DNA of 57,853 bases. Origin: a virus (taxonomy: Duplodnaviria; Heunggongvirae; Uroviricota; Caudoviricetes). The stretch's first letter is position 1. Each line of letters starts with the position of its first letter. This document shows positions 2,794 to 56,085 of this stretch, in pieces. The notes under the pieces were generated by a model that was given only the letters and a program-made list of their open reading frames with translations, did not search any database and was not told the origin of the DNA. The DNA is taken from the IMG/VR virus record IMGVR_UViG_2663762886_000011, one strand, 5' to 3'. The position numbers and the translations under genes are program-made.

Positions 2794-5386
2794 TTGCATA
2801 TTCCTTAGCCCAGCGGGGCAGTGATAACGTCTTAATAGCTGGCCATTCATCGGTATTGAGGCAGTCAGCCAGGGTTCGCAGATTGCGGTGATATTCCAGC
2901 TGACCTGCCAGTTTTGCTTCTTCGCCCATCATGAAAATTTCAACCGGATAACGTCCGCATTCAATAGTTGTGCTGGCAACCAGAAAAACGAAAGTTGGCT
3001 GCACTCCAAACTGTGCTTCATAACCGTCACTGTAGAATGCATCCTGAACGTGATAGCGGTAGTCGTAATAAGCGGTTTTGAATCGTTGAATATCCGCCGT
3101 AGTTTTCACGTCCATGATCCAGTGAAATTCAGGGATAATTTTGTCCGGACGGCACCGACACAAAATTGCTGTTTCAGGATCTTCCCAGTAAATTGATGAT
3201 TCAGCGTGTCCGGCGCTTTCAACAAGCCATTGCCCCAGCGGCAAAGCCATAACGCTCTGATACATGAGTTCAATTTTCCGGCCTTCTTCGGCAGTGATAA
3301 CCGTTTTTCCTGTGCTTGCGCATTCCCTCAGAAACGCTTTCTCTTCTTCTTTTCCGGAGTTTGTCCGGCGGTTAAATTCAGGTGCTACGATAAAGCGGTT
3401 ACTGAATTCTTCCGGCTCAAGTACCCGGCAGTGGAAAGCGGTTCCTAAATCGAGCGTTTTTGTCTTTGTGGTGTCCACGGGGGCATTTTTACGCCACAAA
3501 TACAGTGCCGGAGTATCAGCAATGTCATCGAGCTGAGACTTACTGACACCGGGACCCGCGTGGTAATTCTCATTCGAAATTCCGTAATAAATACCTGGCT
3601 CTATGTCTTCTACGATTACGGGATCTGCGACTTCGCCAGTTTCATCACTGCAATCGCGATGCGGATCGCTGCCAGCATTCTCATTGTGCGGATGTTCAGC
3701 GCCTTCCATTTCCTCCGGATCATTTTCCTTAGCTTCAACCTGACTCTCTTCATCGAATGTTTCCTGGTATGTTGCGTCGCCCATCACCGCACCACAGTCA
3801 GGGCAGTTATCCCCGCCAGTCTGGCCGCAGGCATTGCAGGCTATTTCCGGTTCCTGTTGCACTACTGGCTCAGGTTGATTCATATCCGGGCTGGTTTTTT
3901 CCGTTTCTGGCTGGTTCTGGTACACACAATCGCGAGTCTGGATCCCCTTTACCCATTTCGGATCGTTCGGGTCGCTAATTCCGTCAACAAATTCACCACG
4001 TGATGCAGCAAGCAATTTATCGGCATCGACAGGATTTTTTGATGGAATGTTTTTCCGGGCTTCATGGAGTTCTGCCCGCAGTTCCTGATATTTCGCATCA
4101 ACAGAATTTACCTGTGACTGAGCATCCAGCGGCTGCGTGTCCTGATGATGTTCAGTTGCGTCCGGTTCCATTGTTTCAGCCTCTCCCTGTTCAACTGCCG
4201 TTGTTCCAGATGGTTGCGGTTTTTCTTCATCATCCTGTTTTCCTTCTTCTGTTACTCGCTGCGGCATCGGGGCAGAGGAGCGACCGCAGGCAATATCCAC
4301 GATTTCCGGATCAGGGTTGGCATGATCGGTTTCAGTCAGTACTTTGTTCAGATATTCAGTGACGTGCGCGGGGATGACCTCGATCCCAATTGGTGCTTCT
4401 TTTACGGACGCAACCACGATGGCGCGGGAATAATCCAGCCCGCCAGGCATGGTGATGAATTTGTCGCGGAAAACAGAAAAGGGCGGTTTATTTTCAGCGA
4501 TAATTTCCTCAATGCGTTTAGCGTGTGCCGGATGAAGGTTATAGATGTCCAGATCCATTGAACGGGCCAGTACGCCAGTGGCTACGTCCCGCGCCAGTGA
4601 CGTCAGATCGTGTACGAAACCTTCGCCGCGATCGGTGAGGTTTCCGCCGCCAGCATTAGCACCGGAAGCCGTGCGAGTGATGTGTGAAACACGATTACCC
4701 TTCATCCACTCTTTTGTCAGCAGTCCTCGATCGGTGTAGTCAGCGTTCAGGTATGCTTCGAAAAAAGCAGTTATCAGTCCCAGGTTTGAATTACCAGGAT
4801 TAGGGAAAACTTTGTCAGTGTCACGAACCAGTTTGTGGAGTTCGCGAATTTCCAGCGGGTCGAGCAGGCTGGTTTTGTGGGAAACAGCCAGGGCAGTAAC
4901 AGCCGGTAGTTCTTCAGCCCGAGCAATGTGTAATGCCTGGAGTCCGTCGCGTGAAACGTGCGTTACCGGTTTTTCGCTGCCGTGTTGAGCAAGCCAACGA
5001 ATGGGCAGTTCCTGGCCAGAAATTGGGAGTAGCATATTCTCCTCAATCTCAGTCATGTCTTCGCCGTTGACGTTGGTATTGCCTTGATAGTGAGCGTTGT
5101 CTGGTGCTGCTCCCGGTTTTAGTTCCCATGTCATGGAGTCTTTGCTGAGTTGATAGCGTTCACTCCAGGTAAAATCGATCTCACCTTCAGCGGGCAGGTC
5201 ATTAACGACAGGAAAATTCGTGGCAACAGCTTTAAAATAGCTGCTCAGTTTTTTACCTGACTTAACGATCAGGTAGTCCAGAGTGGCACAGGTCGATTCA
5301 AAATCGTTGCTTGCCCACAGGACGACGTCAGGTTCACCGGATGATTTTTTCGCTTTCCGTAACAGGAAGAGTGGTTTTGTGCTCAT
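2786..5386 (-). CDS. recE: Exodeoxyribonuclease VIII RecE, 866 aa
   Basis: 866-aa ORF with RecE-like sequence and length, upstream of recT. Confidence 0.9.
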
Positions 5387-5487
5387 TGTTTTTTAACCTC
5401 AACTCAGATTAAAATTCGTTTTGTTCAGTGAATGATCTTGCCGGATACACACTGTTCATAGCCTGCGCCATACGCAGGCTATTTCTT

Positions 5488-5763
5488 TCAGATTTCACCT
5501 TTTAATTTCATTGCAATTAGAGTTGCCAGAAATTCGGCTTTTTTTTCTGCGGGCAGATTCTTTCCGATATGCACCAGGCACATTTTTTTGACACCTTCAT
5601 CAAGTGTTTTTACGTTGCCTGATGGACCATCGATATCAACCACAGTGAATGGGGTTTCTTTATTTTCTGTTTTAATTACGTAGCCAATGCGCTTTCCTTC
5701 CAGATTCACCTCGTGAACAATGTCATCGGTAGTTACAACAGTGGCTTCATAATTGGTAATCAT
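5488..5763 (-). CDS. racC: RacC protein, 91 aa
   Basis: Start at internal Met (MITNYEATVVTTDD...); position between recE and kilR as in Rac. Confidence 0.75.
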   Translation of the reverse strand: MITNYEATVVTTDDIVHEVNLEGKRIGYVIKTENKETPFTVVDIDGPSGNVKTLDEGVKKMCLVHIGKNLPAEKKAEFLATLIAMKLKGEI

Positions 5764-6229: not shown

Positions 6230-6670
6230 AATTATCTCCATTTTTACAAATGAACTTTGTTGATGCGGTGCCTGGTGCCTCCAGGTGACTGCAACCAGTT
6301 AACAATTACAGTCGGCTTTCCCACCCAAACCAATAAGGACTAACATGACTTTTAACTGTGCCACGTGCGCTTAGCCGCATTCACCGCATCACAAAATTCA
6401 CTTTAAAAAGGGCGGACATCAGCCGAACTTCAAGAAAAAAACTGATGCCGCCAGGACTACACACAGCAATGTCGTTATTTACAACCGGAGGCGCACTCCC
6501 ACCATTTAAATTTAACAGACAAGACCGACTCTTTATGGATATCGGAAATGCGCCTTCGTGTTGTGCCCGGTTTTATTTCACCACCTCCGGGCTTCGGTGG
6601 TCTCGGCTATACCCCTACAGCGAGAGCTTGTGTTAACATTTCAATACCCTTACAGTTGAGAGTTATTGAT

Positions 6671-7159
6671 ATGTTGGATGTATTTACTCCATTGTTGAAA
6701 CTTTTTGCTAACGAGCCACTCGAAATACTTATGTATACGATTATCATTTTTGGTCTCACTCTCTGGCTGATACCGAAAGAGTTTACTGTCGCATTCAATG
6801 CTTATACTGAAATACCTTGGCTCTTTCAGATTATCGTTTTTGCCTTTTCTTTCGTGGTCGCCATTTCCTTCTCAAGATTGCGAGCACATATTCAAAAGCA
6901 TTATTCATTACTACCAGAGCAACGAGTATTGCTTCGTTTATCTGAGAAAGAAATCGCTGTATTTAAAGATTTCCTTAAAACAGGAAATCTTATTATCACT
7001 TCTCCTTGCCGTAACCCGGTTATGAAAAAATTAGAACGGAAGGGCATCATTCAACATCAGAGTGATAGCGCAAACTGTTCTTATTATCTCGTCACCGAAA
7101 AATACTCCCATTTTATGAAGTTATTCTGGAACAGCAGGAGTAGACGTTTTAATCGTTAG
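6671..7159 (+). CDS. sieB: Superinfection exclusion protein SieB, 162 aa
   Basis: Start at MLDVFTPLLKLF...; hydrophobic N-terminal region; matches SieB family. Confidence 0.8.
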   Translation: MLDVFTPLLKLFANEPLEILMYTIIIFGLTLWLIPKEFTVAFNAYTEIPWLFQIIVFAFSFVVAISFSRLRAHIQKHYSLLPEQRVLLRLSEKEIAVFKDFLKTGNLIITSPCRNPVMKKLERKGIIQHQSDSANCSYYLVTEKYSHFMKLFWNSRSRRFNR

Positions 7160-11758: not shown

Positions 11759-11896
11759 ACGTTACTAGATCAAAGAGCATTAGTTCATATGTAAATTGAC
11801 ATTTTTCTGGCACAGGGGAGAGCTAGCGTGGTTGTCCGCTTTGTGCCAATAGCGGACATTGCTGGCTCATGGTATGTTAGTTTAAGGAGGCAGGTT

Positions 11897-12919
11897 ATGC
11901 CCTGTATTTCGCTGTGGTATAATAGTTGCGCAATTGATACAAGGGAGCGTTACATCGTGAAAATTGTTTTCGAGGTTAATGGAAAGAAAGTTCCACTAAA
12001 ATCTTTAAAATACATAAGCAAAAAAGATCAACTCGAAGTAATGAAAAACTGGTTCTTTGAAAACTTTGAAGATCCGGCAAATGCTTGTCCGTATGAAAGT
12101 AGAGAAGGTGGCTATGCTTACATATATGGCGGGCCGTATGATGCGAGCGAAGAACTACAATCCATCTTCGGTCAATATGTTAAATCTGAGTATATTGAGG
12201 AATTAGTAGATGAATTACAAACACAATGTTTTGACTGGTCTGGAAACTCAAATAATATAGATGATTGGTACGATGATGATATCTACGACGCTGTAACGTC
12301 TTCCGGTAATCCGTATTTAAAATTCATTGATAATATCGATAAAATAAAAAAACTTGCAAAAGATAAAACTGAACAACAGCAAAAAAACCACTTGCTTAGT
12401 TTGCTCTACACGAATGTTATTACAGCTTTGGAAACGCTTTATGTTGAGCTATTCATTAATTCTATAGAGAAAGATGATGTCTACATAGCCAATTGTATAG
12501 AAAAAGGTAAGACTGAATTTAAAGTAAGCAAAGATATTGCTGCGTTGCCTTTCAAGGGTGAACCCATCGAGAAAATTAGGGGAGAGCTAATCAGGTCAAT
12601 CAAGGAACACTTGATCAGTGCAAGCTGGCATAGCACTAAAAAGGTAATCGACCGCTATGAAGCTACATTCGATATAAAAGTACAAAAAGACTGTCCGATA
12701 GAAGCTATTGAATTGGCAACCCTCAATCGAAATCACTTAGTGCATCGTGGTGGAAAGGATAAAGAAGGGAACCTCGTAGTGATTACAGACCAGGATCTTG
12801 AAACGCTGATTGAAAATGCATCGAACCTGGCAATTATGCTCTACAACAGTTTAAATGTAGCAACGAATAAAACCACCATTTTGCAACCAGATGACAAACC
12901 GTTCATTCATGAATTTTAA
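11897..12919 (+). CDS. Candidate defence protein A with HEPN-like Rx4H motif, about 340 aa
   Basis: AT-rich ORF; SD TAAGGAGG 6 nt before ATG 11897 (alternative GTG 11957 preceded by AAGGGAG); C-terminal LNRNHLVHRG matches HEPN R-x(4-6)-H. Confidence 0.6.
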   Translation: MPCISLWYNSCAIDTRERYIVKIVFEVNGKKVPLKSLKYISKKDQLEVMKNWFFENFEDPANACPYESREGGYAYIYGGPYDASEELQSIFGQYVKSEYIEELVDELQTQCFDWSGNSNNIDDWYDDDIYDAVTSSGNPYLKFIDNIDKIKKLAKDKTEQQQKNHLLSLLYTNVITALETLYVELFINSIEKDDVYIANCIEKGKTEFKVSKDIAALPFKGEPIEKIRGELIRSIKEHLISASWHSTKKVIDRYEATFDIKVQKDCPIEAIELATLNRNHLVHRGGKDKEGNLVVITDQDLETLIENASNLAIMLYNSLNVATNKTTILQPDDKPFIHEF

Positions 12920-12934
12920 TAGCGCAGGTCATAC

Positions 12935-13936
12935 ATGGATATTCGCACACGAAAGACAAAATTTTTAGAGTCGTTAGATTCAACTGAAGTGATACGCAAA
13001 GCAGTAAGTCTCGCTATAGATTGCATTATTGATAATCATAATAGTAATGAAGATACCCCCTTAGTTATTACCAGCTATGATGATCTCTGTAGAATCCAGG
13101 TGCTAAATTATGTACAGGAGTTTTGCGAAGCTGCATTCCCTGATATGGATGAATATTACTTTAGTCCTAACATACTTCGCATCAACGGCAAGACTAGTGA
13201 AGAAGCTTGTATTAACTTAATTAAACTCTTAAGAAGTACAAAAGGCATGCTATTCTGGTCCGATGCCCCATCGTGGTTCGCTAGCCTCCCCGACGGATTA
13301 TTCCATGTTGTTAACATTGATCAAAAAATCGTTACTCGCGGCCTTAATAAGAAAAACTCTAAGCCGACAATAATCAATAAAGATTACAGTGTAGATACAC
13401 TACTATCAGAGCTATTTTTGAATGGCGCACACATGGAGCAACCCAACGTACACAACGTTTCTGAGGGAAACATGAAGTTCTATGATGAATGCCATGCTGG
13501 ATTAATCAGACCAATACCCGCTCCAATAGGCGCGTCATACGATGAAGAGATCACAATTAATTCTCCAGATTGGCAAAAGCTCGCGTGTGTAGCTTTACGC
13601 CGCTATCAGTCGAAGGAATGTCATGACGGAATGCAATGGGATACAACCGATCATGGTTGGACTGATGTAATCGCGTATCCATTCGTCGAAGAAATACAAT
13701 CAATGGATAATAGTGGTTATCGACAATGTTTAGTTGGGCTGGTCACAATAAACAATTCAAATGCAAATTCTCCGTACCTATCTACCGTTTGGATACATCC
13801 ATTTTATCGCAGGAGAGGGTTATTAAGTAAGTTATGGCCAAAATTACAAGAGTTATATGGAAGTAACTTCGAAATTGAGCGACCTAATGAAAATATGAAA
13901 GCATTTCTGAAAAGTGCGAAACACGCAGATTACTAA
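12935..13936 (+). CDS. Candidate defence protein B with GNAT-like C-terminal motif, 333 aa
   Basis: AT-rich ORF 15 nt downstream of protein A; C-terminus STVWIHPFYRRRGLLSKLWPKL resembles GNAT motif A. Confidence 0.6.
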   Translation: MDIRTRKTKFLESLDSTEVIRKAVSLAIDCIIDNHNSNEDTPLVITSYDDLCRIQVLNYVQEFCEAAFPDMDEYYFSPNILRINGKTSEEACINLIKLLRSTKGMLFWSDAPSWFASLPDGLFHVVNIDQKIVTRGLNKKNSKPTIINKDYSVDTLLSELFLNGAHMEQPNVHNVSEGNMKFYDECHAGLIRPIPAPIGASYDEEITINSPDWQKLACVALRRYQSKECHDGMQWDTTDHGWTDVIAYPFVEEIQSMDNSGYRQCLVGLVTINNSNANSPYLSTVWIHPFYRRRGLLSKLWPKLQELYGSNFEIERPNENMKAFLKSAKHADY

Positions 13937-16308: not shown

Positions 16309-16598
16309 TGGTGAATTTACGTAAAGCGGCTAAAGGCCAGATGTGCCAGATCAGAATCCCTGGCTACTGCAATCACAATCCCGAAACCTCTGTGCTGGCG
16401 CATTACAGGCTGGCGGGGACGTGCGGGACAGCGACAAAACCACATGATATGCAGGCGGCGATAGCCTGTAGCTCATGCCACGATCTAATCGACGGGCGGG
16501 TAAAAACCAGCGATTACACCAAAGAAGAATTGCGCCTGATGCATGCTGAAGGGGTTTTTCGCACACAAGAAATCTGGAGAAAGAAAGGTCATTTATGA
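16308..16598 (+). CDS. DUF1364 YbcO-like Cys-cluster protein, putative nuclease, 96 aa
   Basis: Translation MVNLRKAAKGQMCQIRIPGYCNHNPETSVLAHYRL...ACSSCHDLIDGR resembles YbcO-type proteins. Confidence 0.6.
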   Translation: MVNLRKAAKGQMCQIRIPGYCNHNPETSVLAHYRLAGTCGTATKPHDMQAAIACSSCHDLIDGRVKTSDYTKEELRLMHAEGVFRTQEIWRKKGHL

Positions 16599-17137
16599 TT
16601 TACCCAACGAATACAGGAAAAAGCGGAGAACACCTTCGCCTCACCACGCTGGAAAGTGTCTGGATTCAGGGAAAACTACGTATGTGGGGGCGCTGGTCGT
16701 ATATTGGCGGTGGCAGGTCAGGGAATATGTTCAATCAGTTGTTGGCATCCAAAAAACTGACGAAAACAGCCATTAATGAAGCCCTGCGCAGAATGAAAAA
16801 AGCGGGAATAGAGAAAGCTGAGCTGGAAGCGTTTTTGCGAGAGATGATCAACGGCAAGCAAAAGAGCTGGCTGGCGCATTGTACTGATGCAGAGGCGTTA
16901 TGTATTGATCGAGTCATAAGTGAGGTGCTGGCAGAGCATCCAGGATTGATTTGCATTCTCCGGCAACGCTATGAAGGGCGGGGGATGACTAAGCGCAAAA
17001 TGGCTGAATTGCTAAATGATGCACACCCAGAGTGGTGTTTTAGCACATGCGAAAAACGGATTGCTAATTGGTTAGCTGTTGCTGAGTATGCCCTATATAT
17101 TCCCATGCGTGAATCATTTGCTGAGAAAATGGCTTGA
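16595..17137 (+). CDS. Putative late-gene antiterminator (Q-like by position), 180 aa
   Basis: Last gene of the nin-like block, directly followed by a strong intrinsic terminator and then the lysis region; no motif-level confirmation. Confidence 0.45.
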   Translation: MIYPTNTGKSGEHLRLTTLESVWIQGKLRMWGRWSYIGGGRSGNMFNQLLASKKLTKTAINEALRRMKKAGIEKAELEAFLREMINGKQKSWLAHCTDAEALCIDRVISEVLAEHPGLICILRQRYEGRGMTKRKMAELLNDAHPEWCFSTCEKRIANWLAVAEYALYIPMRESFAEKMA

Positions 17138-17215
17138 TTTCTTACGTATAAACTGCTTCAATTTTGCTATGCTTCGCAAAGCTGTATCGCGAGGCGGATT
17201 GCAGACATGGACATC

Positions 17216-17245
17216 GTAAAAAAACCGCTTAATGCGGTTTTTTTA
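17216..17245 (+). terminator. Intrinsic terminator (tR'-like) downstream of Q-like gene
   Basis: AAAAAACCGC-TTAAT-GCGGTTTTTTT: perfect stem, A-run before and T-run after (bidirectional). Confidence 0.65.
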
Positions 17246-17562
17246 CGTCAGGAAAGCAGGGGAGAATGCTGCTAGTTGGGCAACTGGTCTTTCTGCTCCA
17301 AATTATAACAGAGACCAGTTATAGTTTCGGTGCTGTGTTTTTTTTACAATATTGTGATAACACATTGCTGGCGGGAGTTTTGATATTTCTTGGCAGGGGC
17401 TGATGATGCGTTATCCTGATGTCGTCAACTCATATAAAATGAGATGAGAGATCATTGCAGGGTGGTTTGTAATTCGCTGTTTAGCGGGACAATATGTTGT
17501 CTGATACAAGACACCCGACGCCTCAGATTACTATAATAAAGACGAAGCATCCTTTGTATTGA

Positions 17563-17595
17563 CCAACCGCCTGTTTAGGCGGTTCTTTTTGGGCT
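17563..17595 (+). terminator. Second hairpin plus T-tract
   Basis: AACCGCC-TGTTTA-GGCGGTT followed by CTTTTT. Confidence 0.45.
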
Positions 17596-18122
17596 GGTTT
17601 ATTGTATGCCAAATGATTATTAAAAAGGTTGTGTTAATAACAAGATCCGAAATAATATGCCTGCATATTTTTATCTTGCTTATATTCTGCATATTGTGCA
17701 TAGCAGGCTCATCCCTGCAATCAAAACTGTATGATGAGTATTTTTTGTTTTCCTTTTTTCCAGTCATCTGATGATGACCTGCTTCTTTTTAATCCGGATC
17801 GACATCAGTTTTTTAAGATAATTCCTGCGAGTTATATGCATAAATGCCACAAACTCCGCATTTTATGTGGTTGGGAGTTGCCGGGCGCGCAGTGAGTTTG
17901 CTAAGAAAACTCCTGCATGGTGAATCCCCCTGTGCGGTGGGGTGATACCATTAACCTTTTCTGTCGCCGACAGGTATCACGAACATTTTGTTCACCGGGA
18001 GGCACCCGGCACCATGCACTTCAATAGATTCTCTCCACATTATGGATATTCTTTCAGAATATCCCACGCAGACTTTGTGTAAATGTTAACAAATGTGCGT
18101 TTTATTTGATCTGATTCGCTGT

Positions 18123-18152
18123 TTGAGCGTCCAAAACAACGGTATATATAAT
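18123..18152 (+). promoter_or_regulatory. Candidate sigma70 promoter for lipoprotein gene
   Basis: TTGAGC then about 18 bp then TATAAT, roughly 30 nt upstream of SD GAGGA and ATG 18182. Confidence 0.4.
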
Positions 18153-18181
18153 CCTTTACTATATGACATATGTGAGGAAAA

Positions 18182-18610
18182 ATGGGTTTTCGTAGCGCAT
18201 CAATTCTTACGTTGATTATTAGTGGGATTATTATCGGGTGCACTGATGCTGTATCGACAAATTATCATGACCGTACATCATATTACTCCGATAAAGCAAT
18301 AGAGACACAGTATGTGAGTTCATCTGAACGTACTTCTGATGTTAGTGAGGATATCCGTCTGTATGCCCATCAAATCAAGAGCGCCATCGAAAAACAGTTC
18401 GGGGATGCGAGTAAGTATTCAGGAAAAGAGTGTACACTGAGAATGCATATGGCCCCGAATGGCCTTCTACTGGAGGTTAAAAGAGAAAGTGGAGACCTCG
18501 ATTTATGTCGTGAAGCGATGAATGCGATAAAGAATGCTGATATACCTGCCCCCCCTTCGCCGGAAGTATATAAAGTATTTCAAAATGGGGTGCTGGATTT
18601 TAAACCCTGA
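18182..18610 (+). CDS. Lipoprotein with TolA domain III-like C-terminus, 142 aa
   Basis: Signal peptide with lipobox IIGC; C-terminal YAHQIKSAIEKQFGDASKYSGKECTLRMHMAPNGLLLEVK...CREAMNAIKNADIPAPPSPEVYKVFQNGVLDFKP resembles the TolA C-terminus including both Cys. Confidence 0.8.
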   Translation: MGFRSASILTLIISGIIIGCTDAVSTNYHDRTSYYSDKAIETQYVSSSERTSDVSEDIRLYAHQIKSAIEKQFGDASKYSGKECTLRMHMAPNGLLLEVKRESGDLDLCREAMNAIKNADIPAPPSPEVYKVFQNGVLDFKP

Positions 18611-18760
18611 TATTTATTGTTTTGTAATAAACGGTTTCGGCTTAGGTTTGTTCTGACACAGCTACGGCACTGAGCTAAATTTAGCGGATAGTCAGCTCTG
18701 AGCCAGTGGCGGACGTAACAACTACTATTGCTGAGATTTTAATGGATTGAGGAGCAAGAA

Positions 18761-19156
18761 GTGGGATTAAAGAAAATCGTTATGTTGACTTTTTGGGTCG
18801 GTTTTGTTGCGGGATGCACACCTTTACACCCTTCAGATTGCCACAAAACTACTGCTACAGGTAGTTGCAGTTCAGGACGCTGGGATGATCAGGATGAATG
18901 GGGGGCGCAAGCGCGGGGAATCAGAGCTGCAATTAATGCCAAACTTGATGAGCCGCATAACTGGAAAGGGAAAAAATGCAGGTTGCATATGGAATTCTCT
19001 CAGGATGGCACGGCGTTAAAAATATCTACCAGTAACGGTGATAAAGCCTATTGCGAAGCGATAAAGTCCGCAGCTCATAAAGCCAAATTTCCGGCCTTCA
19101 ACAATCCGGAAGTCTACAGAGATTTTCAGAAATCTGGCTTTGACATGCGAGGTTAG
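18761..19156 (+). CDS. Paralogous lipoprotein with divergent TolA-III-like domain, 131 aa
   Basis: GTG start with SD GAGGAG; lipobox VAGC; shares GKKCRLHMEF...CEAIKSAAHKAKFPAFNNPEVYRDFQ pattern with the upstream lipoprotein. Confidence 0.7.
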   Translation: MGLKKIVMLTFWVGFVAGCTPLHPSDCHKTTATGSCSSGRWDDQDEWGAQARGIRAAINAKLDEPHNWKGKKCRLHMEFSQDGTALKISTSNGDKAYCEAIKSAAHKAKFPAFNNPEVYRDFQKSGFDMRG

Positions 19157-19281
19157 CTCTTCAATTACTATATCTCATTCATAGCAAACTGACAGATTTG
19201 ATGATGTTCTATATACGAAACCTGTGATGTCAAGTCTGAGCTAATACAAATAAACATAATATCAGAGAAATACATTTTATT

Positions 19282-19304
19282 AGCTCGCTACGGCGAGCTT
19301 TTTA
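19282..19304 (+). terminator. Intrinsic terminator after lipoprotein genes
   Basis: AGCTCGC-TACG-GCGAGCT followed by TTTT. Confidence 0.5.
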
Positions 19305-19407
19305 TATTGCATCGTCTCCAGCATATATATCAATTAAGGCTCTGATTGATGTGTCTGAAAGCCTACACATAATAACTATGCCATCCGTTCCGTGCGGAGG
19401 TGAGGCT

Positions 19408-19623
19408 ATGAAATCCATGGACAAAATTTCAACAGGCATTGCCTACGGCACCTCCGCAGGCAGTGCTGGCTACTGGTTTTTACAGTTGCTCGATAGAGTA
19501 ACTCCGTCACAGTGGGCTGCAATCGGTGTGCTGGGTAGTCTGGTATTTGGCCTGCTGACGTACCTGACAAACCTTTATTTCAAGATTAAAGAAGATAAGC
19601 GCAAGGCTGCGAGAGGTGAATAA
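19408..19623 (+). CDS. Holin, 71 aa
   Basis: [25 protein letters not shown]... with transmembrane segments and charged C-terminus; first gene of the lysis cassette. Confidence 0.8.
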
Positions 19624-20120
19624 TGCCTCCATCATTACGAAAAGTCGTTGCTGCTGCTATTGGTGGCGGAGCAATTGCTATAGCATCAGTGTTAATCACT
19701 GGCCCAAGTGGTAACGATGGTCTGGAAGGTGTCAGCTACATACTATACAAAGATATTGTTGGTGTATGGACTGTATGTCACGGGCATACAGGAAAAGACA
19801 TCATGCTCGGTAAAACGTATACCAAAGCAGAATGCAAAACACTCTTGAATAAAGACCTTGCCACTGTCGCCAGACAAATTAACCCGTACATCAAAGTCGA
19901 TATACCGGAAACAACGCGCTGCGCTCTTTACTCGTTCGTTTACAACGTGGGCGCTGGCAATTTCAGAACATCGACGCTTCTTCGCAAAATAAACCAGGGT
20001 GATATCAAAGGCGCATGTGACCAGCTACGTCGCTGGACATATGCTGGCGGTAAGCAATGGAAAGGTCTCATGACTCGTCGTGAGATTGAGCGTGAAATCT
20101 GTTTGTGGGGTCAGCAATGA
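19623..20120 (+). CDS. Endolysin (phage lysozyme), 165 aa
   Basis: Lysozyme-like sequence; ATGA overlap with holin stop. Confidence 0.85.
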
Positions 20121-20581
20121 ACAGAGTAACCGCGATTATCTCCGCTCTGGTTATCTGCATCATCGTCTGCCTGTCATGGGCTGTTAATCATTACCGTGAT
20201 AACGCCATTACCTACAAAGCCCAGCGCGACAAAAATGCCAGAGAACTGAAGCTGGCGAACGCGGCAATTACTGACATGCAGATGCGTCAGCGTGATGTTG
20301 CTGCGCTCGATGCAAAATACACGAAGGAGTTAGCTGATGCGAAAGCTGAAAATGATGCTCTGCGTGATGATGTTGCCGCTGGTCGTCGTCGGTTGCACAT
20401 CAAAGCAGTCTGTCAGTCAGTGCGTGAAGCCACCACCGCCTCCGGCGTGGATAATGCAACCAGCCCCCGACTGGCAGACACCGCTGAACGGGATTATTTC
20501 ACCCTCCGGGAACGACTGGTAATGATGCAGGCCCAACTTGAAGGTGCTCAGCAATACATAACCGAGCAGTGTTTAAAGTAA
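20117..20581 (+). CDS. rzpR: Spanin inner-membrane subunit Rz
   Basis: N-terminal TM segment, coiled-coil rest; follows endolysin with ATGA overlap. Confidence 0.8.
20337..20522 (+). CDS. rzoR: Spanin outer-membrane lipoprotein Rz1, embedded in Rz
   Basis: 61-aa ORF in +1 frame inside Rz; lipobox VVGC; Pro-rich. Confidence 0.75.
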
Positions 20582-20718
20582 AATCTTAACTACAATATGA
20601 TTCATTTTGATGATTGTTTCATAAGGAACAGTGAAGTAAGATCTAAGAGGAGTTAAATTTTATACAGTATAATCATAATATTGCAGCAAGGTGGTTATAA
20701 TTGAAAGAATATTTAGAT

Positions 20719-22176
20719 ATGAATACATCTCATGTAAGAGTTGTTACTCATATGTGTGGGTTCCTGGTTTGGCTCTATAGTCTTTCAATGTTGCCACCAA
20801 TGGTTGTAGCATTGTTTTATAAAGAAAAAAGCCTGTTCGTTTTCTTTATAACTTTCGTTATATTTTTTTGCATTGGTGGCGGAGCGTGGTATACAACTAA
20901 GAAATCTGGCATTCAATTACGTACCCGTGATGGGTTTATTATAATTGTAATGTTTTGGATTTTGTTTTCTGTTATTAGTGCATTCCCTTTATGGATTGAC
21001 TCAGAACTTAATTTAACGTTCATTGATGCTCTGTTTGAAGGGGTTTCTGGAATAACAACAACAGGAGCAACTGTAATTGATGATGTTAGTTCATTACCTC
21101 GGGCATATTTGTACTATCGGTCACAGTTAAATTTTATAGGTGGTTTAGGAGTTATTGTTCTGGCGGTTGCAGTATTGCCATTATTGGGTATTGGTGGTGC
21201 AAAGCTTTATCAGTCAGAAATGCCGGGGCCATTTAAGGATGACAAACTCACTCCCCGCCTGGCCGATACGTCACGGACACTGTGGATAACTTATTCTTTA
21301 TTAGGTATTGCTTGTATTGTCTGTTATAGACTTGCAGGAATGCCTTTGTTTGATGCTATTTGTCACGGGATTTCCACAGTTTCGCTTGGTGGTTTCTCAA
21401 CTCATAGCGAGAGTATCGGATATTTTAATAACTATTTGGTTGAGCTGGTGGCTGGTTCTTTTTCCCTGCTATCGGCTTTCAACTTCACTCTTTGGTATAT
21501 TGTTATTAGCAGAAAAACGATAAAACCTTTAATCAGAGATATTGAACTTCGTTTCTTTCTGTTAATAGCCTTAGGGGTGATCATTGTTACCTCTTTCCAG
21601 GTCTGGCATATAGGTATGTATGACTTGCATGGAAGTTTTATTCATTCGTTTTTTCTTGCCAGCTCCATGCTCACTGATAATGGTTTAGCTACGCAGGATT
21701 ATGCAAACTGGCCCACGCACACGATAGTGTTTTTGCTGTTGTCAAGTTTCTTTGGGGGATGTATAGGTTCAACCTGTGGTGGAATTAAGTCACTTCGATT
21801 TCTTATACTTTTCAAACAAAGCAAACACGAGATAAATCAGCTTTCTCATCCCAGAGCGTTGTTGAGTGTAAATGTAGGAGGGAAGATAGTTACAGATCGT
21901 GTAATGAGGTCTGTATGGAGTTTCTTTTTTCTTTATACTCTCTTCACGGTGTTTTTTATACTGGTGTTAAATGGTATGGGATATGATTTTCTTACATCAT
22001 TTGCAACAGTGGCTGCATGTATTAATAATATGGGATTAGGTTTTGGGGCTACTGCATCGTCATTCGGAGTGCTTAATGACATTGCAAAATATTTAATGTG
22101 CATAGCTATGATTCTTGGTCGCCTTGAAATTTATCCTGTTATTATATTGTTTTCAGGTTTTTTTTGGCGCTCCTAA
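20719..22176 (+). CDS. trkG: Potassium uptake protein TrkG, 485 aa
   Basis: Polytopic membrane protein sequence matching TrkG; AT-rich codon usage; same position after rzoR as in Rac. Confidence 0.9.
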   Translation: MNTSHVRVVTHMCGFLVWLYSLSMLPPMVVALFYKEKSLFVFFITFVIFFCIGGGAWYTTKKSGIQLRTRDGFIIIVMFWILFSVISAFPLWIDSELNLTFIDALFEGVSGITTTGATVIDDVSSLPRAYLYYRSQLNFIGGLGVIVLAVAVLPLLGIGGAKLYQSEMPGPFKDDKLTPRLADTSRTLWITYSLLGIACIVCYRLAGMPLFDAICHGISTVSLGGFSTHSESIGYFNNYLVELVAGSFSLLSAFNFTLWYIVISRKTIKPLIRDIELRFFLLIALGVIIVTSFQVWHIGMYDLHGSFIHSFFLASSMLTDNGLATQDYANWPTHTIVFLLLSSFFGGCIGSTCGGIKSLRFLILFKQSKHEINQLSHPRALLSVNVGGKIVTDRVMRSVWSFFFLYTLFTVFFILVLNGMGYDFLTSFATVAACINNMGLGFGATASSFGVLNDIAKYLMCIAMILGRLEIYPVIILFSGFFWRS

Positions 22177-39977: not shown

Positions 39978-40874
39978 GCACGCGCCCTTATTGCCCGGGG
40001 ATGGGGAGTAAGCTTAGTCAGCCGTTGTCTCCGGGTGTCGCGTGCGCAGTTGCACGTCATTCTCAGACGAACCGATGACTGGATGGATGGCCGCCGCAGT
40101 CGTCACACTGATGATACGGATGTGCTTCTCCGTATACACCATGTTATCGGAGAGCTGCCCACGTATGGTTATCGTCGGGTATGGGCGCTGCTTCGCAGAC
40201 AGGCAGAACTTGATGGTATGCCTGCGATCAATGCCAAACGTGTTTACCGGATCATGCGCCAGAATGCGCTGTTGCTTGAGCGAAAACCTGCTGTACCGCC
40301 ATCGAAACGGGCACATACAGGCAGAGTGGCCGTGAAAGAAAGCAATCAGCGATGGTGCTCTGACGGGTTCGAGTTCTGCTGTGATAACGGAGAGAGACTG
40401 CGTGTCACGTTCGCGCTGGACTGCTGTGATCGTGAGGCACTGCACTGGGCGGTGACTACCGGCGGCTTCAACAGTGAAACAGTACAGGACGTCATGCTGG
40501 GAGCGGTGGAACGCCGCTTCGGCAACGATCTTCCGTCGTCTCCAGTGGAGTGGCTGACGGATAATGGTTCATGCTACCGGGCTAATGAAACACGCCAGTT
40601 CGCCCGGATGTTGGGACTTGAACCGAAGAACACGGCGGTGCGGAGTCCGGAGAGTAACGGAATAGCAGAGAGCTTCGTGAAAACGATAAAGCGTGACTAC
40701 ATCAGTATCATGCCCAAACCAGACGGGTTAACGGCAGCAAAGAACCTTGCAGAGGCGTTCGAGCATTATAACGAATGGCATCCGCATAGTGCGCTGGGTT
40801 ATCGCTCGCCACGGGAATATCTGCGGCAGCGGGCTTGTAATGGGTTAAGTGATAACAGATGTCTGGAAATATAG
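39978..40874 (+). CDS. insD: IS2 transposase InsD, N-terminally incomplete
   Basis: See IS2 fragment; ORF continues from the gap to CLEI stop. Confidence 0.85.

Positions 40875-42663: not shown

Positions 42664-42689
<26 letters not shown>
42144..42689 (+). CDS. nu1: Terminase small subunit Nu1, 181 aa
   Basis: Translation near-identical to lambda Nu1 (MEVNKKQLADIFGASIRTIQNWQEQGMPV...). Confidence 0.95.
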
Positions 42690-46370
<3,681 letters not shown>

Positions 46371-46390
<20 letters not shown>

Positions 46391-47690
46391 TCTCCCGCAT
46401 ATTGCCAGCATGGCTTTTAATGAGCCGCTGATGCTTGAACCCGCCTATGCGCGGGTTTTCTTTTGTGCGCTTGCAGGCCAGCTTGGGATCAGCTGCCTGA
46501 CGGATGCAGTATCCGGCGACAGCCTGACTGCCGGAGAGGCACCCGCGGCGCTGGCGTTATCCGGTGATGATGACGGACCACGACAGGCCCGCAGTTATCA
46601 GGTAATGAACGGCATCGCCGTGCTGCCGGTGTCCGGCACGCTGGTCAGCCGGACGCGGGCGCTGCAGCCGTACTCGGGGATGACCGGTTACAACGGCATT
46701 ATCGCCCGTCTGCAACAGGCTGCCAGCGACCCGATGGTGGACGGCATTCTGCTCGATATGGACACACCGGGCGGAATGGTGGCGGGAGCATTTGACTGCG
46801 CTGACATCATCGCCCGTGTGCGTGACATAAAGCCGGTATGGGCGCTGGCCAATGACATGAACTGCAGCGCAGGTCAGCTGCTTGCCAGTGCCGCCTCCCG
46901 GCGTCTGGTCACGCAGACCGCCCGGACAGGCTCCATCGGCGTCATGATGGCTCACAGTAATTACGGCGCTGCACTGGAGAAACAGGGCGTGGAAATCACG
47001 CTGATTTACAGCGGCAGCCATAAGGTGGATGGCAACCCCTACAGCCATCTACCGGATGATGTCCGGGAAACATTGCAGTCCCGGATGGATGCAACCCGCC
47101 GGATGTTTGCACAGAAGGTGTCGGCATATACCGGCCTGTCCGTGCAGGCTGTGCTGGATACCGAGGCTGCAGTGTACAGCGGTCAGGAGGCCATTGATGC
47201 CGGACTGGCTGATGAACTTGTTAACAGTACCGATGCGATCACCGTCATGCGTGATGCACTGGATGCACGTAAATCCCGTCTCTCAGGAGGGCGAATGACC
47301 AAAGAGACTCAATCAACAACTGTTTCAGCCACTGCTTCGCAGGCTGACGTTACTGGCGTGGTGCAAGCGACGGAGGGCGAGAACGCCAGCGCGGCGCAGC
47401 CGGACGTGAACGCGCAGATCACCGCAGCGGTTGCGGCAGAAAACAGTCGCATTATGGGGATCCTCAACTGTGAGGAGGCTCACGGACGCGAAGAACAGGC
47501 ACGCGTGCTGGCCGAAACCCCCGGTATGACCGTGGAAACGGCCCGCCGTATTCTGGCCGCAGCACCACAGAGTGCACAGACGCGCAGTGACACTGCGCTG
47601 GATCGTCTGATGCAGGGGGCACCGGCACCGCTGGCTGCAGGTAACCCGGCATCTGATGCCGTTAACGATTTGCTGAACACACCAGTGTAA
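46371..47690 (+). CDS. C: Capsid protease/scaffold protein C (with nested Nu3), 439 aa
   Basis: GTG start after GAGGAG; translation VTAELRNLPHIASMAFNEPLMLEPAYARVFF... as lambda C. Confidence 0.9.
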
Positions 47691-47699
47691 GGGATGTTT

Positions 47700-48032
47700 A
47701 TGACGAGCAAAGAAACCTTTACCCATTACCAGCCGCTGGGCAATAGTGACCCGGCTCATACCGCAACCGCGCCCGGCGGATTGAGTGCGAAAGCGCCTGC
47801 AATGACCCCGCTGATGCTGGACACCTCCACCCGTAAGCTGGTTGCGTGGGATGGCACCACCGACGGTGCTGCCGTTGGCATTCTTGCGGTTGCTGCTGAC
47901 CAGACCAGCACCACACTGACGTTCTACAAGTCCGGCACGTTCCGTTATGAGGATGTGCTCTGGCCGGAGGCTGCCAGCGACGAGACGAAAAAACGGACCG
48001 TGTTTGCCGGAACGGCAATCAGCATCGTTTAA
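47700..48032 (+). CDS. D: Capsid decoration protein D, 110 aa
   Basis: [27 protein letters not shown]... as lambda D. Confidence 0.9.
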
Positions 48033-48087
48033 CTTTACCCTTCATCACTAAAGGCCGCCTGTGTGGCTTTTTTTACGGGATTTTTTT

Positions 48088-49113
48088 ATGTCGATGTACA
48101 CAACCGCCCAGCTGCTGGCGGCAAATGAGCAGAAATTTAAGTTTGATCCGCTGTTTCTGCGTCTCTTTTTCCGTGAGAGCTATCCCTTCACTACGGAGAA
48201 AGTCTATCTCTCACAAATTCCGGGACTGGTAAACATGGCGCTGTACGTTTCGCCGATTGTTTCCGGTGAGGTTATCCGTTCCCGTGGCGGCTCCACCTCT
48301 GAATTTACGCCGGGATATGTCAAACCCAAGCATGAGGTGAATCCGCAGATGACCCTGCGTCGCCTGCCGGATGAAGATCCGCAGAATCTGGCGGACCCGG
48401 CTTACCGCCGCCGTCGCATCATCATGCAGAACATGCGTGACGAAGAGCTGGCCATTGCTCAGGTCGAAGAGATGCAGGCAGTTTCTGCCGTGCTCAAGGG
48501 CAAATACACCATGACCGGTGAAGCCTTCGATCCGGTTGAGGTGGATATGGGCCGCAGTGCGGCGAACAACATCACACAGTCCGGCGTCACGGAGTGGAGC
48601 AAGCGTGACAAGTCCACGTATGACCCGACCGACGATATCGAAGCCTACGCGCTGAACGCCAGCGGTGTGGTGAATATCATCGTGTTTGACCCGAAAGGCT
48701 GGGCGCTGTTCCGTTCCTTCAAAGCCGTCAAGGAGAAGCTGGATACCCGTCGCGGCTCTCATTCCGAGCTGGAGACAGCGGTAAAAGACCTGGGCAAAGC
48801 GGTGTCCTATAAGGGAATGTATGGCGATGTGGCCATCGTCGTGTATTCCGGACAGTACGTGGAAAACGGCGTCAAAAAGAACTTCCTGCCGGACAACACG
48901 ATGGTGCTGGGGAACACTCAGGCTCGCGGTCTGCGCACCTATGGCTGCATTCAGGATGCGGACGCACAGCGCGAAGGCATTAACGCTTCTGCCCGTTACC
49001 CGAAAAACTGGGTGACCACCGGCGATCCGGCGCGTGAGTTCACCATGATTCAGTCAGCACCGCTGATGCTGCTGGCTGATCCTGATGAGTTCGTGTCCGT
49101 TCAACTGGCGTAA
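48088..49113 (+). CDS. E: Major capsid protein E, 341 aa
   Basis: MSMYTTAQLLAANEQKFKFDPLFLRLF... as lambda E. Confidence 0.95.
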   Translation: MSMYTTAQLLAANEQKFKFDPLFLRLFFRESYPFTTEKVYLSQIPGLVNMALYVSPIVSGEVIRSRGGSTSEFTPGYVKPKHEVNPQMTLRRLPDEDPQNLADPAYRRRRIIMQNMRDEELAIAQVEEMQAVSAVLKGKYTMTGEAFDPVEVDMGRSAANNITQSGVTEWSKRDKSTYDPTDDIEAYALNASGVVNIIVFDPKGWALFRSFKAVKEKLDTRRGSHSELETAVKDLGKAVSYKGMYGDVAIVVYSGQYVENGVKKNFLPDNTMVLGNTQARGLRTYGCIQDADAQREGINASARYPKNWVTTGDPAREFTMIQSAPLMLLADPDEFVSVQLA

Positions 49114-49154
49114 TCATGGCCCTTCGGGGCCATTTTCTCTCTGTGGAGGAGTTC

Positions 49155-49553
49155 ATGACGAAAGATGAACTGATTGCCCGTCTTCAGGAGCTGGGTGAGC
49201 AATTGAACCGCGATGTCAGTTTGACGGGAACGAAAGAAGAACTGGCGCTTCGTGTGGCAGAGCTGGAAGAAGAGCTTGATGACACGGATGAAACTGCCGG
49301 TCAGGACACCCCTCTCAGCCGGGAAAATGTGCTGACCGGGCATGAAAATGAGGTGGTATCAGCGCAGCCGGATACCGTGATTCAGGATACGGCTGAACTG
49401 GTCACGGTCGTGGCACTGGTGACGCTGCATACTGATGCACTTCACGCCACGCGGGATAAACCTGTGGCATTTGTGCTGCCGGGAACGGCGTTTCGTGTCT
49501 CTGCCGGTGTGGCAGCCGAAATGACAGAGCGCGGCCTGGCCAGAATGCAATAA
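49155..49553 (+). CDS. FI: DNA packaging protein FI, 132 aa
   Basis: MTKDELIARLQELGEQLNRDVSLTGTKEELA... as lambda FI. Confidence 0.85.
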   Translation: MTKDELIARLQELGEQLNRDVSLTGTKEELALRVAELEEELDDTDETAGQDTPLSRENVLTGHENEVVSAQPDTVIQDTAELVTVVALVTLHTDALHATRDKPVAFVLPGTAFRVSAGVAAEMTERGLARMQ

Positions 49554-49564
49554 CGGGAGGCGCT

Positions 49565-49918
49565 GTGGCTGATTTCGATAACCTGTTCGATGCTGCCATT
49601 GCCCGCGCCGATGAAACGATACGCGGGTACATGGGAACGTCAGCCACCATGACATCCGGTGAGCAGTCAGGTGCGGTGATACGTGGTGTTTTTGATGACC
49701 CTGAAAATATCAGCTATGCCGGACAGGGCGTGCGCGTTGAAGGCTCCAGCCCGTCCCTGTTTGTCCGGACTGATGAGGTGCGGCAGCTGCGGCGTGGAGA
49801 CACGCTGACCATCGGTGAGGAAAATTTCTGGGTAGATCGGGTTTCGCCGGATGATGGCGGAAGTTGTCATCTCTGGCTTGGACGGGGCGTACCGCCTGCC
49901 GTTAACCGTCGCCGCTGA
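49565..49918 (+). CDS. FII: Head completion protein FII, 117 aa
   Basis: Lambda FII-like. Confidence 0.9.
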   Translation: MADFDNLFDAAIARADETIRGYMGTSATMTSGEQSGAVIRGVFDDPENISYAGQGVRVEGSSPSLFVRTDEVRQLRRGDTLTIGEENFWVDRVSPDDGGSCHLWLGRGVPPAVNRRR

Positions 49919-49929
49919 AAGGGGGATGT

Positions 49930-50508
49930 ATGGCCATAAAAGGTCTTGAGCAGGCCGTTGAAAACCTCAGCCGTATCAGCAAAACGGCGGTGCCCGGTGC
50001 CGCCGCAATGGCCATTAACCGCGTTGCTTCATCCGCGATATCGCAGTCTGCGTCACAGGTTGCCCGTGAGACAAAGGTACGCCGGAAACTGGTAAAGGAA
50101 AGGGCCAGGCTGAAAAGGGCCACGGTCAAAAATCCGCAGGCCAGAATCAAAGTTAACCGGGGGGATTTGCCCGTAATCAAGCTGGGTAATGCGCGGGTTG
50201 TCCTGTCCCGCCGCAGGCGTCATAAAAAGGGGCAGCGTTCATCCCTGAAAGGTGGCGGCAGCGTGCTTGTGGTGGGTAACCGTCGTATTCCCGGCGCGTT
50301 TATTCAGCAACTGAAAAACGGCCGGTGGCATGTTATGCAGCGTGTGGCCGGGAAAAACCGTTACCCCATTGATGTGGTGAAAATCCCGATGGCGGTGCCG
50401 CTGACCACGGCGTTTAAACAGAATATTGAACGGATACGGCGTGAACGTCTTCCGAAAGAGCTGGGCTATGCGCTGCAGCATCAACTGAGAATGGTAATAA
50501 AGCGATGA
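49930..50508 (+). CDS. Z: Tail completion protein Z, 192 aa
   Basis: Lambda Z-like. Confidence 0.9.
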   Translation: MAIKGLEQAVENLSRISKTAVPGAAAMAINRVASSAISQSASQVARETKVRRKLVKERARLKRATVKNPQARIKVNRGDLPVIKLGNARVVLSRRRRHKKGQRSSLKGGGSVLVVGNRRIPGAFIQQLKNGRWHVMQRVAGKNRYPIDVVKIPMAVPLTTAFKQNIERIRRERLPKELGYALQHQLRMVIKR

Positions 50509-50900
50509 AACATACTGAACTCCGTGCAGCCGTACTGGATGCACTGGAGAAGCATGACACCGGGGCGACGCTTTTTGATGGTCGCCCCGCTGTTTTTGAT
50601 GAGGAAGATTTTCCGGCAATTGCCGTTTATCTCACCGGCGCTGAATACACGGGCGAAGAGCTGGACAGCGATACCTGGCAGGCGGAGCTGCATATTGAAG
50701 TTTTCCTGCCTGCTCAGGTGCCGGATTCAGAGCTGGATTCGTGGATGGAGTCCCGGATTTATCCTGTGATGAGCGATATCCCGGCACTGTCAGATTTGAT
50801 CACCAGTATGGTGGCCAGCGGCTATGACTACCGGCGCGACGATGATGCGGGCCTGTGGAGTTCAGCCGATCTGACTTATGTCATTATCTATGAAATGTGA
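50505..50900 (+). CDS. U: Tail terminator protein U, 131 aa
   Basis: Lambda U-like. Confidence 0.9.
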
Positions 50901-50907
50901 GGACGCT

Positions 50908-51648: not shown

Positions 51649-51663
51649 TCCGGAGAGTCAGCG

Positions 51664-56080: not shown

Positions 56081-56085
56081 ATCCC

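Follow-up and report, generated by a model that had tools for sequence, protein, structure and literature searches.

Between the gene for a Q-like late-gene activator and the holin and lysis genes of a Rac-type Escherichia coli prophage lie two small open reading frames (ORFs), here called ORF1 and ORF2. The prophage is part of a window, meaning the whole stretch of DNA that was analyzed, of 57,853 nucleotides (nt) from the IMG/VR record IMGVR_UViG_2663762886_000011 (Caudoviricetes). Based on the comparisons reported here, ORF1 and ORF2 are copies of the C-terminal domain of the host protein TolA (domain III, TolAIII) with a predicted lipid anchor. The TolA domain itself was already known, and genes of this kind have been annotated by homology; what is new is to see in them an envelope lipoprotein of mobile elements that is built from a copy of a host co-receptor domain.

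Two lipoproteins built on TolA domain III

The Pfam model TolA_C (PF06519) matches both proteins above its cut-off of 25 bits, ORF1 with 82.6 bits (E=2.4e-23) and ORF2 with 54.6 bits (E=1.3e-14). In a phmmer search against the PDB, amino acids (aa) 55-142 of ORF1 align without gaps to residues 334-421 of E. coli TolA (E about 1e-27). Identity to TolAIII is 60% for ORF1 and 34% for ORF2, and the two proteins are 31% identical to each other. ORF1 keeps the terminal LDFKP and both Cys of TolAIII, ORF2 keeps the Cys pair and the PEVY..F segment, and the disulfide C363-C388 of TolA aligns to C84/C109 in ORF1 and to C73/C98 in ORF2. AlphaFold2 models have a predicted local distance difference test (pLDDT) above 90 in the C-terminal domains (residues 54-142 of ORF1) and low values for signal peptides and linkers. 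When the models were compared with the PDB by Foldseek, E. coli TolAIII structures came first for both proteins, with TonB C-terminal domains far behind; the ORF1 model superposes on 2x9a_B with a template modeling (TM) score, TMt, of 0.96 and a root-mean-square deviation of 0.6 Å, and the ORF2 model on 3qdp with a TMt of 0.92 and a deviation of 1.1 Å. A structure search of BFVD gave no significant match, and the single strong PHROG match is to family 5772, 'unknown function'.

On the TolA equivalog NF007065 of NCBIfam, ORF1 (107.8) and ORF2 (53.7) both score under the cut-off of 213; on TIGR02794, ORF1 (75.6) is above the cut-off of 59.45 with a match that is local only, and ORF2 (47.2) is below it. 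The TolA-model matches span only the last 79-98 model positions. Both proteins lack the membrane anchor (domain I) through which TolA is coupled to TolQR as well as the long helical domain II, and both genes are sited outside a tol-pal operon. Because domains I and II are missing and the scores fall short of the equivalog cut-off, we regard ORF1 and ORF2 as TolAIII-domain lipoproteins and not as TolA.

In both ORFs, a charged n-region of a few residues precedes the hydrophobic core of the signal peptide, which ends in a canonical lipobox of the pattern [LVI][ASTVI][GAS]C. ORF1 follows a ribosome-binding site, GAGGA, located 4 nt 5' of its ATG, and its N-terminus, MGFRSASILTLIISGIIIGC, has the lipobox I-I-G-C with Cys20 (codon 18239-18241). 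ORF2 starts with a GTG that lies 6 nt 3' of GAGGAG, and its N-terminus, MGLKKIVMLTFWVGFVAGC, has the lipobox V-A-G-C with Cys19 (codon 18815-18817); this GTG is preferred over the downstream ATG chosen by the Prokaryotic Genome Annotation Pipeline (PGAP), because a start at the ATG would remove the charged n-region. The lipobox is conserved in both ORF families, including where the signal peptide differs. In both proteins, the lipobox Cys is followed by Thr; as this residue is not Asp, the +2 rule predicts sorting by Lol to the outer membrane, where ORF1 and ORF2 would reside at the inner leaflet. In ORF1, the signal peptide and lipobox (aa 1-20) are followed by a linker (aa 21-54) and the TolAIII domain (aa 55-142, positions 18344-18607); in ORF2, the corresponding parts are aa 1-19, aa 20-44 and aa 45-131 (positions 18893-19153). 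The linkers, 34 residues long in ORF1 and 25 in ORF2, are mostly disordered by prediction. That of ORF2, CTPLHPSDCHKTTATGSCSSGRWDDQDEWG, is near-invariant, contains Trp and two extra Cys, and might add a second contact, for instance with TolB. A loose resemblance of this linker to the TolB box of colicin E9 gained no backing from phmmer against the PDB, which gave no colicin match.

An earlier note on this DNA, made from the sequence alone, had read both ORFs as lipoproteins and the end of ORF1 as resembling TolAIII, and had proposed structural modeling as a check; both readings are borne out. Its description of ORF2 as a more divergent, paralogous copy holds with regard to the TolAIII-like domain, but 'paralogous' is too strong, because the mutual identity is low, ORF1 is nearer to TolA and the two families are differently distributed (see below). 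A recent tandem duplication is ruled out by the same low identity and the separate distributions.

In the genome NZ_CP033250, PGAP annotates ORF1 as a tolA pseudogene ('incomplete; missing N-terminus'). A dead fragment of a captured tolA would fit this call and the restriction of the match to the last 88 residues of TolA. However, ORF1 is intact, with ribosome-binding site, signal peptide and lipobox, its identity of just 60% to host TolAIII means that it is no recent tolA fragment, and the identical ORF1 sequence is present on at least 1000 contigs. Moreover, ratios of nonsynonymous to synonymous substitution rates (dN/dS), calculated by the method of Nei and Gojobori, are low. Between ORF1 and a 66%-identical homologue, in which the signal peptide is swapped and the lipobox kept, dN/dS is 0.36 for the whole gene and 0.24 for the TolAIII domain only; for ORF2, it is 0.12 in comparison with the orthologue on pO157 and 0.08 with that of Enterobacter. 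ORF1 and ORF2 are under purifying selection, and the pseudogene call for ORF1 is therefore wrong; in view of the intact lipoprotein ORF and the conserved lipobox, we discard the dead-fragment explanation as highly improbable.

In E. coli TolA, the N1 domain of the filamentous phage protein g3p, colicin N and the N-terminus of TolB all bind strand β3 (A415-K420) by β-strand addition, and the backbone of D418 and K420 is critical for this binding (PMC4339652, PMC7066135). The site of colicin A is on strand β2 (L375-P380), together with K368, K379 and K396 (PMC3365938), and Tyr-352 of Walburger et al., Y353 in our own count, is cited in PMC2707214 as tied to TolB binding. Strand β3 reads APLDFKP in TolA, GVLDFKP in ORF1 and SGFDMRG in ORF2; in other words, L417-D418-F419-K420-P421 are all identical in ORF1, and the Asp is the sole identity in ORF2, where the remaining changes are conservative. 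Strand β2 reads LLDIKP in TolA, LLEVKR in ORF1 and ALKIST in ORF2. The three lysines K368, K379 and K396 correspond to H89, K100 and K117 in ORF1 and to E78, S89 and H106 in ORF2, and at the Y353 position ORF1 has Gly and ORF2 has Asp. Judged by this alignment, ORF1 retains the β3 ligand surface and most of the colicin A site, K379 and K396 included. Among homologues, L417, D418 and F419 are equally well conserved in short lipoproteins and long TolAs, whereas the short lipoproteins show lower conservation in the 351-353 region (0.21 at the Y353 position vs 0.67 in long TolAs), a pattern that is compatible with reduced TolB binding.

A mobile cassette and its relatives on plasmids and chromosomes

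The earlier note had placed the two genes in the slot between Q and the lysis genes, which it called a moron slot, with a candidate promoter and a terminator. The slot is confirmed by the Q-like gene upstream and the holin and endolysin genes downstream, and both regulatory sites were found (Table 1). Promoter-like sites, however, are no commoner in the cassette region than in shuffles (11 vs 7.3 ± 2.9), and the promoter therefore stays a candidate. The terminator has a stem of 7 pairs, 5/7 of them G-C. Across the cassette, the guanine-plus-cytosine (GC) content is 40-46% vs about 51% in the adjoining nin-region genes, with intermediate values in Q and the lysis genes. Transfer RNA genes, which Stx phages have in the Q-to-holin gap, were not found in the window.

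Table 1. Features of the Q-to-holin region of the window
Feature	Position	Strand	Basis and remarks
Q-like late-gene antiterminator	16595..17137	+	PHROG 753 'anti-termination protein Q-like', E=2e-79; PGAP name DUF1133; upstream edge of the slot
Hairpin and T-run immediately 3' of Q	17219..17245	+	AAAAAACCGCTTAATGCGGTTTTTTTA, read directly in the sequence
STnc100-family RNA element	17885..18071	+	Rfam RF02076, 86.6 bits vs gathering score 47; full-length model match
Candidate sigma-70 promoter for ORF1-ORF2	18123..18152	+	TTGAGC-18-TATAAT; consensus scan, 10/12 matches
ORF1, 142-aa lipoprotein	18182..18610	+	Signal peptide and lipobox, linker, TolAIII domain
ORF2, 131-aa lipoprotein, GTG start	18761..19156	+	Signal peptide and lipobox, linker, TolAIII domain
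Intrinsic terminator closing the ORF1-ORF2 unit, 5' of holin	19282..19307 (hairpin 19282-19299)	+	AGCTCGCTACGGCGAGCT then TTTTTATATT
Holin, last part of the shared module	19408..19623	+	PHROG 9876 and PHROG 20 'holin'

The cassette belongs to a module that moves between phage backgrounds. In mEp460_ev081, the only relative found in the phage collection searched, homology spans positions 17894-19624 of the window and comprises the STnc100 element, ORF1, ORF2, the terminator and the holin gene, while the Q gene and the endolysin differ. Likewise, in 80 IMG/VR loci, the cassette is accompanied by one of two Q genes and one of two endolysins, and several pairings of these occur. In mEp460 and the IMG/VR loci alike, the holin gene is inherited together with ORF1 and ORF2. 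So is the STnc100 element, which opens the module directly 5' of the candidate promoter and could here be a small RNA, a leader or a module boundary. The whole 1.2 kb cassette is present at ≥99% identity in 775 of 5426 complete E. coli genomes (~14%), and about 150 further genomes, including Shiga toxin-producing E. coli, have ORF1 variants of the 66% type.

The two families differ in distribution. The ORF1 family, whose 46 clusters come exclusively from E. coli or Shigella, is confined to lambdoid prophages and always occupies the Q-to-holin slot. Its 66%-identical member stands alone in other lambdoid prophages, 3' of a different Q gene and of TfpB/AraC-like cargo, and is followed by terminator hairpins; at its most complete locus (L007), these precede a DUF1737/SASA-domain gene, a holin gene and a lysozyme gene. 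One hairpin at this locus, at 6612-6631, resembles the 3' terminator of STnc100 and lies 3' of the ORF1 homologue. DNA homology between the two ORF1 types (homologue P0028) starts only at codon 19; the two types have different signal peptides but share the lipobox. The ORF2 family is large (at least 370 clusters), and an orthologue with 88% identity to ORF2 is carried by about 600 plasmids of E. coli and Shigella. One such orthologue, WP_001335086, is a conserved backbone gene of I-complex plasmids that is the next gene after the relaxase gene nikB, 68 bp 3' of it, and faces trbCBA; examples are at 6965-7396 in L014 (IncK2/Z) and L015 (IncI1/B/O) and at 3965-4396 in L096 and L097 (IncIγ/K1). 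Because no separate promoter or terminator was found, this gene is probably co-transcribed with the oriT operon. On pO157, the orthologue WP_001453090 lies between hok/psiAB and toxB. In Enterobacter, by contrast with these mobile settings, the ORF2-family gene is chromosomal and has no phage neighbours; it is located between genes for a glutathione peroxidase and a RidA-family protein.

The same order of lipobox, linker and TolAIII domain is found in at least four lineages, i.e. on IncI-complex plasmids, pO157, Klebsiella ColRNAI plasmids and Klebsiella IncFIB plasmids. On the cloacin-type ColRNAI plasmids, the TolAIII lipoprotein has the lipobox LTAC and ends in NAPLDFRP; its gene overlaps a gene for a TonB_C protein with a signal peptide and adjoins bacteriocin, immunity and lysis genes. 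An example of this TolAIII lipoprotein/TonB C-terminal pair (WP_001237044 and WP_072354022) is at 4908-5641 of the locus L003, from the 10-kb Klebsiella pneumoniae plasmid p1_020030 (NZ_CP028788.2). Klebsiella plasmid genes of these two kinds are named in PMC10269471 as annotation only. The TolAIII lipoprotein of the IncFIB plasmids has the lipobox ITAC, and its gene adjoins one for a DsbC-like thioredoxin. When 1.84 billion representative proteins were searched with a profile, 581 matched. The best 150 matches include 95 proteins of less than 175 aa; a lipobox is present in at least 62 of these short proteins, and an ordinary signal peptide in some of the others. The database names are all automated ('TolA', 'TolA family' or 'colicin import membrane protein').

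Possible roles: decoy, Tol-Pal modulator or envelope lipoprotein

In view of the relatives on conjugative and colicin plasmids, ORF1 and ORF2 are probably either decoys or modulators of the Tol system. We favor the reading that they are TolAIII decoys, anchored in the outer membrane, that would confer tolerance to colicins or exclude filamentous phages, and we give it a probability of roughly 0.45. In this model, the lipid would anchor both proteins in the outer membrane, with the TolAIII domain held on a linker of 25-35 residues. The anchored domains would present the β-strand-augmentation surfaces of TolAIII while being uncoupled from TolQR and the proton-motive force. After crossing the outer membrane, the translocation domains of group A colicins (A, N, K and E1 and, indirectly via the TolB N-terminus, E2-E9) would meet the decoy, as would the N1 domain of the g3p of filamentous phages. 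Their unproductive capture would make the lysogen or plasmid host tolerant to colicins and resistant to phages of the Ff or If1 type. As a moron, the gene pair would be transcribed from a promoter of its own in the lysogen and, after induction, by read-through of the Q-modified polymerase.

The decoy reading is supported by the match to TolAIII in sequence, fold and disulfide, by the conserved surfaces of ORF1, by the persistence of the lipobox where the signal peptide was replaced, by the moron anatomy of the cassette and by the recurrence of the architecture on elements that are exposed to Tol-dependent attack. The moron anatomy consists of the candidate promoter, the clear terminator, the lower GC content, the different Q and endolysin backgrounds and the occurrence of an ORF1 homologue alone in other lambdoid prophages. 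The pili of IncI-complex plasmids are the receptor of phage IF1, and the g3p of IF1 has been solved bound to TolAIII (PDB 2x9a). On a bacteriocin plasmid, a TolAIII lipoprotein is accompanied by a TonB C-terminal domain. Analysis of the plasmid contexts (IncI-complex, pO157 and cloacin-type) makes a decoy or a Tol-Pal modulator, both already suggested in the earlier note, more plausible. Furthermore, periplasmic TolAIII, as reportedly described by Levengood-Freyermuth et al. in 1993, is said to make cells tolerant to colicins E1, E2, E3 and A. A second experimental precedent is the leakiness of E. coli with periplasmic TolAIII (PMC6195910).

Several observations weigh against a decoy. ORF2 lacks the colicin A contacts, although its fold is kept, and its β3 strand is changed. 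The promoter that would serve the lysogen is a candidate identified by its match to the consensus. The module is inherited with the holin gene, which would fit a role in lysis as well, and the stable presence of the ORF2 family on Enterobacter chromosomes, outside any phage, hints at a physiological role. PADLOC gave no match for ORF1 or ORF2 as a known defense system. Finally, a decoy would carry a cost, because free periplasmic TolAIII damages the outer membrane and makes E. coli leaky (PMC6195910).

This leakage of periplasmic proteins is also an argument for the main rival, i.e. that ORF1 and ORF2 modulate Tol-Pal or assist lysis. Here, an anchored TolAIII would bind the N-terminus of TolB in competition with TolA, Pal would be mobilized less and the outer membrane would become looser; as a result, the lysogen could form more vesicles or, under strong co-transcription of the genes with the lysis cassette, the outer membrane could rupture and release phage more easily. 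The position of the genes in the late operon, directly 5' of the holin gene with which they are co-inherited, agrees with this, as does the conservation in ORF1 of the β3 strand that TolB uses. Support may also come from a possible homologue, the TolA-annotated gene EDL933_2012 of the prophage CP-933O, which is reported to be induced 32-fold by ciprofloxacin (PMC11125564). By contrast, a terminator separates ORF2 from holin, the phage already has genes of the Rz/Rz1 type, orthologues reside in plasmid backbones and chromosomes without lysis genes, and the position implicated in TolB binding, Y353, is replaced in both proteins and poorly conserved in short lipoproteins in general. On balance, we consider a modulator or lysis accessory unlikely, although it is the strongest of the alternatives. 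Slightly less likely still is a housekeeping lipoprotein of the envelope, e.g. an outer-membrane partner of a periplasmic protein, that mobile elements merely carry and that has no function in defense or lysis. The conserved, non-mobile neighbourhood of the Enterobacter genes with their low dN/dS and the large number of diverse short TolAIII lipoproteins point in this direction. However, the repeated and independent capture of such genes by phages and by conjugative and colicin plasmids argues for a benefit linked to mobile elements, and so does the fact that, on a bacteriocin plasmid, such a gene is accompanied by one for a protein with a TonB C-terminal domain.

If the decoy reading is extended to the whole class, mobile elements of Enterobacterales, from lambdoid prophages to plasmids of the IncI-complex, pO157 and cloacin Col types, may carry widespread 'import-hub mimics', that is, anchored copies of TolAIII, one of which is accompanied by a secreted TonB C-terminal domain. 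These would provide broad tolerance to Tol-dependent (and Ton-dependent) bacteriocins independently of immunity proteins, and would keep out filamentous phages that attack cells with pili. We put this forward tentatively, as a generalization with somewhat less than even odds.

It is well established that mobile elements encode small envelope lipoproteins which the carrier cell expresses and which block the entry of competitors, e.g. Cor of phi80, N15 and HK022, Llp of T5 and TraT of F. These proteins inactivate a receptor (FhuA or OmpA), whereas ORF1 and ORF2, which have no sequence relationship to them, would imitate a periplasmic co-receptor. With E. coli TolAIII (PDB 1TOL, 1S62, 2X9A and 3QDP/3QDR; PF06519), they have the fold and the disulfide in common, and in ORF1 LDFKP is identical and the colicin A strand largely kept; they differ from TolA in having a lipoprotein signal peptide and a short linker in place of domains I and II. 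Recombinant periplasmic TolAIII (Levengood-Freyermuth 1993, Wan & Baneyx 1998) is likewise an exported, isolated TolAIII that is uncoupled from TolQR. However, the recombinant domain is soluble, is overexpressed and has the very sequence of the host domain, whereas ORF1 and ORF2 are predicted to be lipid-anchored, have diverged, are encoded by a mobile element and are under purifying selection. Exclusion and colicin tolerance mediated by the g3p of Ff phages involve the same interaction of g3p-N1 or colicins with TolAIII (binding site, PMC4339652); Ff g3p occupies the TolA of the host, and ORF1 and ORF2 would conversely occupy the incoming ligand. The plasmid homologues WP_001335086, WP_001453090 and the Klebsiella pair WP_001237044/WP_072354022 share the lipobox-linker-TolAIII arrangement, with the E. 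coli plasmid genes being 88% identical to ORF2; their settings differ, i.e. a relaxase operon, a hok/psiB neighbourhood and a bacteriocin operon, and their names are automated only. In the full text of open-access PubMed Central and bioRxiv, no functional study of TolAIII lipoproteins encoded by phages, plasmids or chromosomes was found, consistent with the earlier note, which knew of no described function.

If ORF1 and ORF2 are decoys, they would represent a new principle of exclusion in which a mobile element copies a host co-receptor instead of masking it. Plasmids and phages would then spread a broad tolerance to colicins and klebicins, which would matter for colicin ecology, for therapeutics based on bacteriocins and for attempts to combat plasmid-bearing bacteria with filamentous or pilus-specific phages. 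As Tol-Pal modulators, on the other hand, they would offer a natural means of tuning TolB-TolA coupling and vesiculation. Both outcomes are within reach of routine assays (colicin spot tests, phage plating and pull-downs). This ease of testing adds to the interest of a cassette that is prevalent and whose current annotation, as 'TolA' or as a tolA pseudogene, is misleading.

Further features of the window

The gap of 1 kb between Q and ORF1 is poor in ORFs. The hairpin that follows Q is probably tR' of a short PR' transcript, and it overlaps a weak isrK-like Rfam match (17171-17244; 21.6 bits, under the gathering score). Further downstream, on the plus strand at 17508-17584, a strong terminator hairpin (17565-17584) comes no more than about 30 nt after a promoter-like AAGACA-18-TATAAT (10/12 matches), and this arrangement may yield a very short transcript. 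At the other end of the cassette, the holin, which we take to be of the phage 21 type, is followed by the endolysin gene and then by the Rz/Rz1-type genes at about 20105-20581.

The Rac-type assignment of the prophage is based on the markers intR, xisR, rcbA, ralR, recT, recE, kilR and sieB and, later, trkG, ynaK and ydaY in the PGAP annotation of an identical chromosome. Positions 1-41000 hold a full-length Rac-type element in which the Q-lysis segment is intact. The Rac prophage of E. coli K-12 is presumably without this segment (Q to Rz), which would account for the lack of a K-12 name or K-12 genetics for ORF1 and ORF2. The trkG gene (20701-22176) is flanked by the lysis genes and a ParB-like gene, and sieB (6548-7159), a pseudogene in strain ECCHD184, looks intact here. 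Two adjacent ORFs on the plus strand, 11828-12919 (363 aa) and 12935-13936 (333 aa), have no Pfam, NCBIfam or PADLOC match and occupy a cargo slot with the replication module (DUF1376, DnaC-like, DUF1627) on one side and NinB on the other; in ECCHD184, this slot is instead filled by transporter and regulator genes. The two ORFs may constitute an uncharacterized defense or accessory pair. Lastly, an insertion sequence-type transposase gene (rve domain, 40035-40874) precedes a second set of phage structural genes at 42664-57853, which includes a lambda-type terminase gpA (42664-44589) and large ORFs up to 57853. This arrangement suggests a second prophage, or a remnant of one, abutting the Rac-type element.

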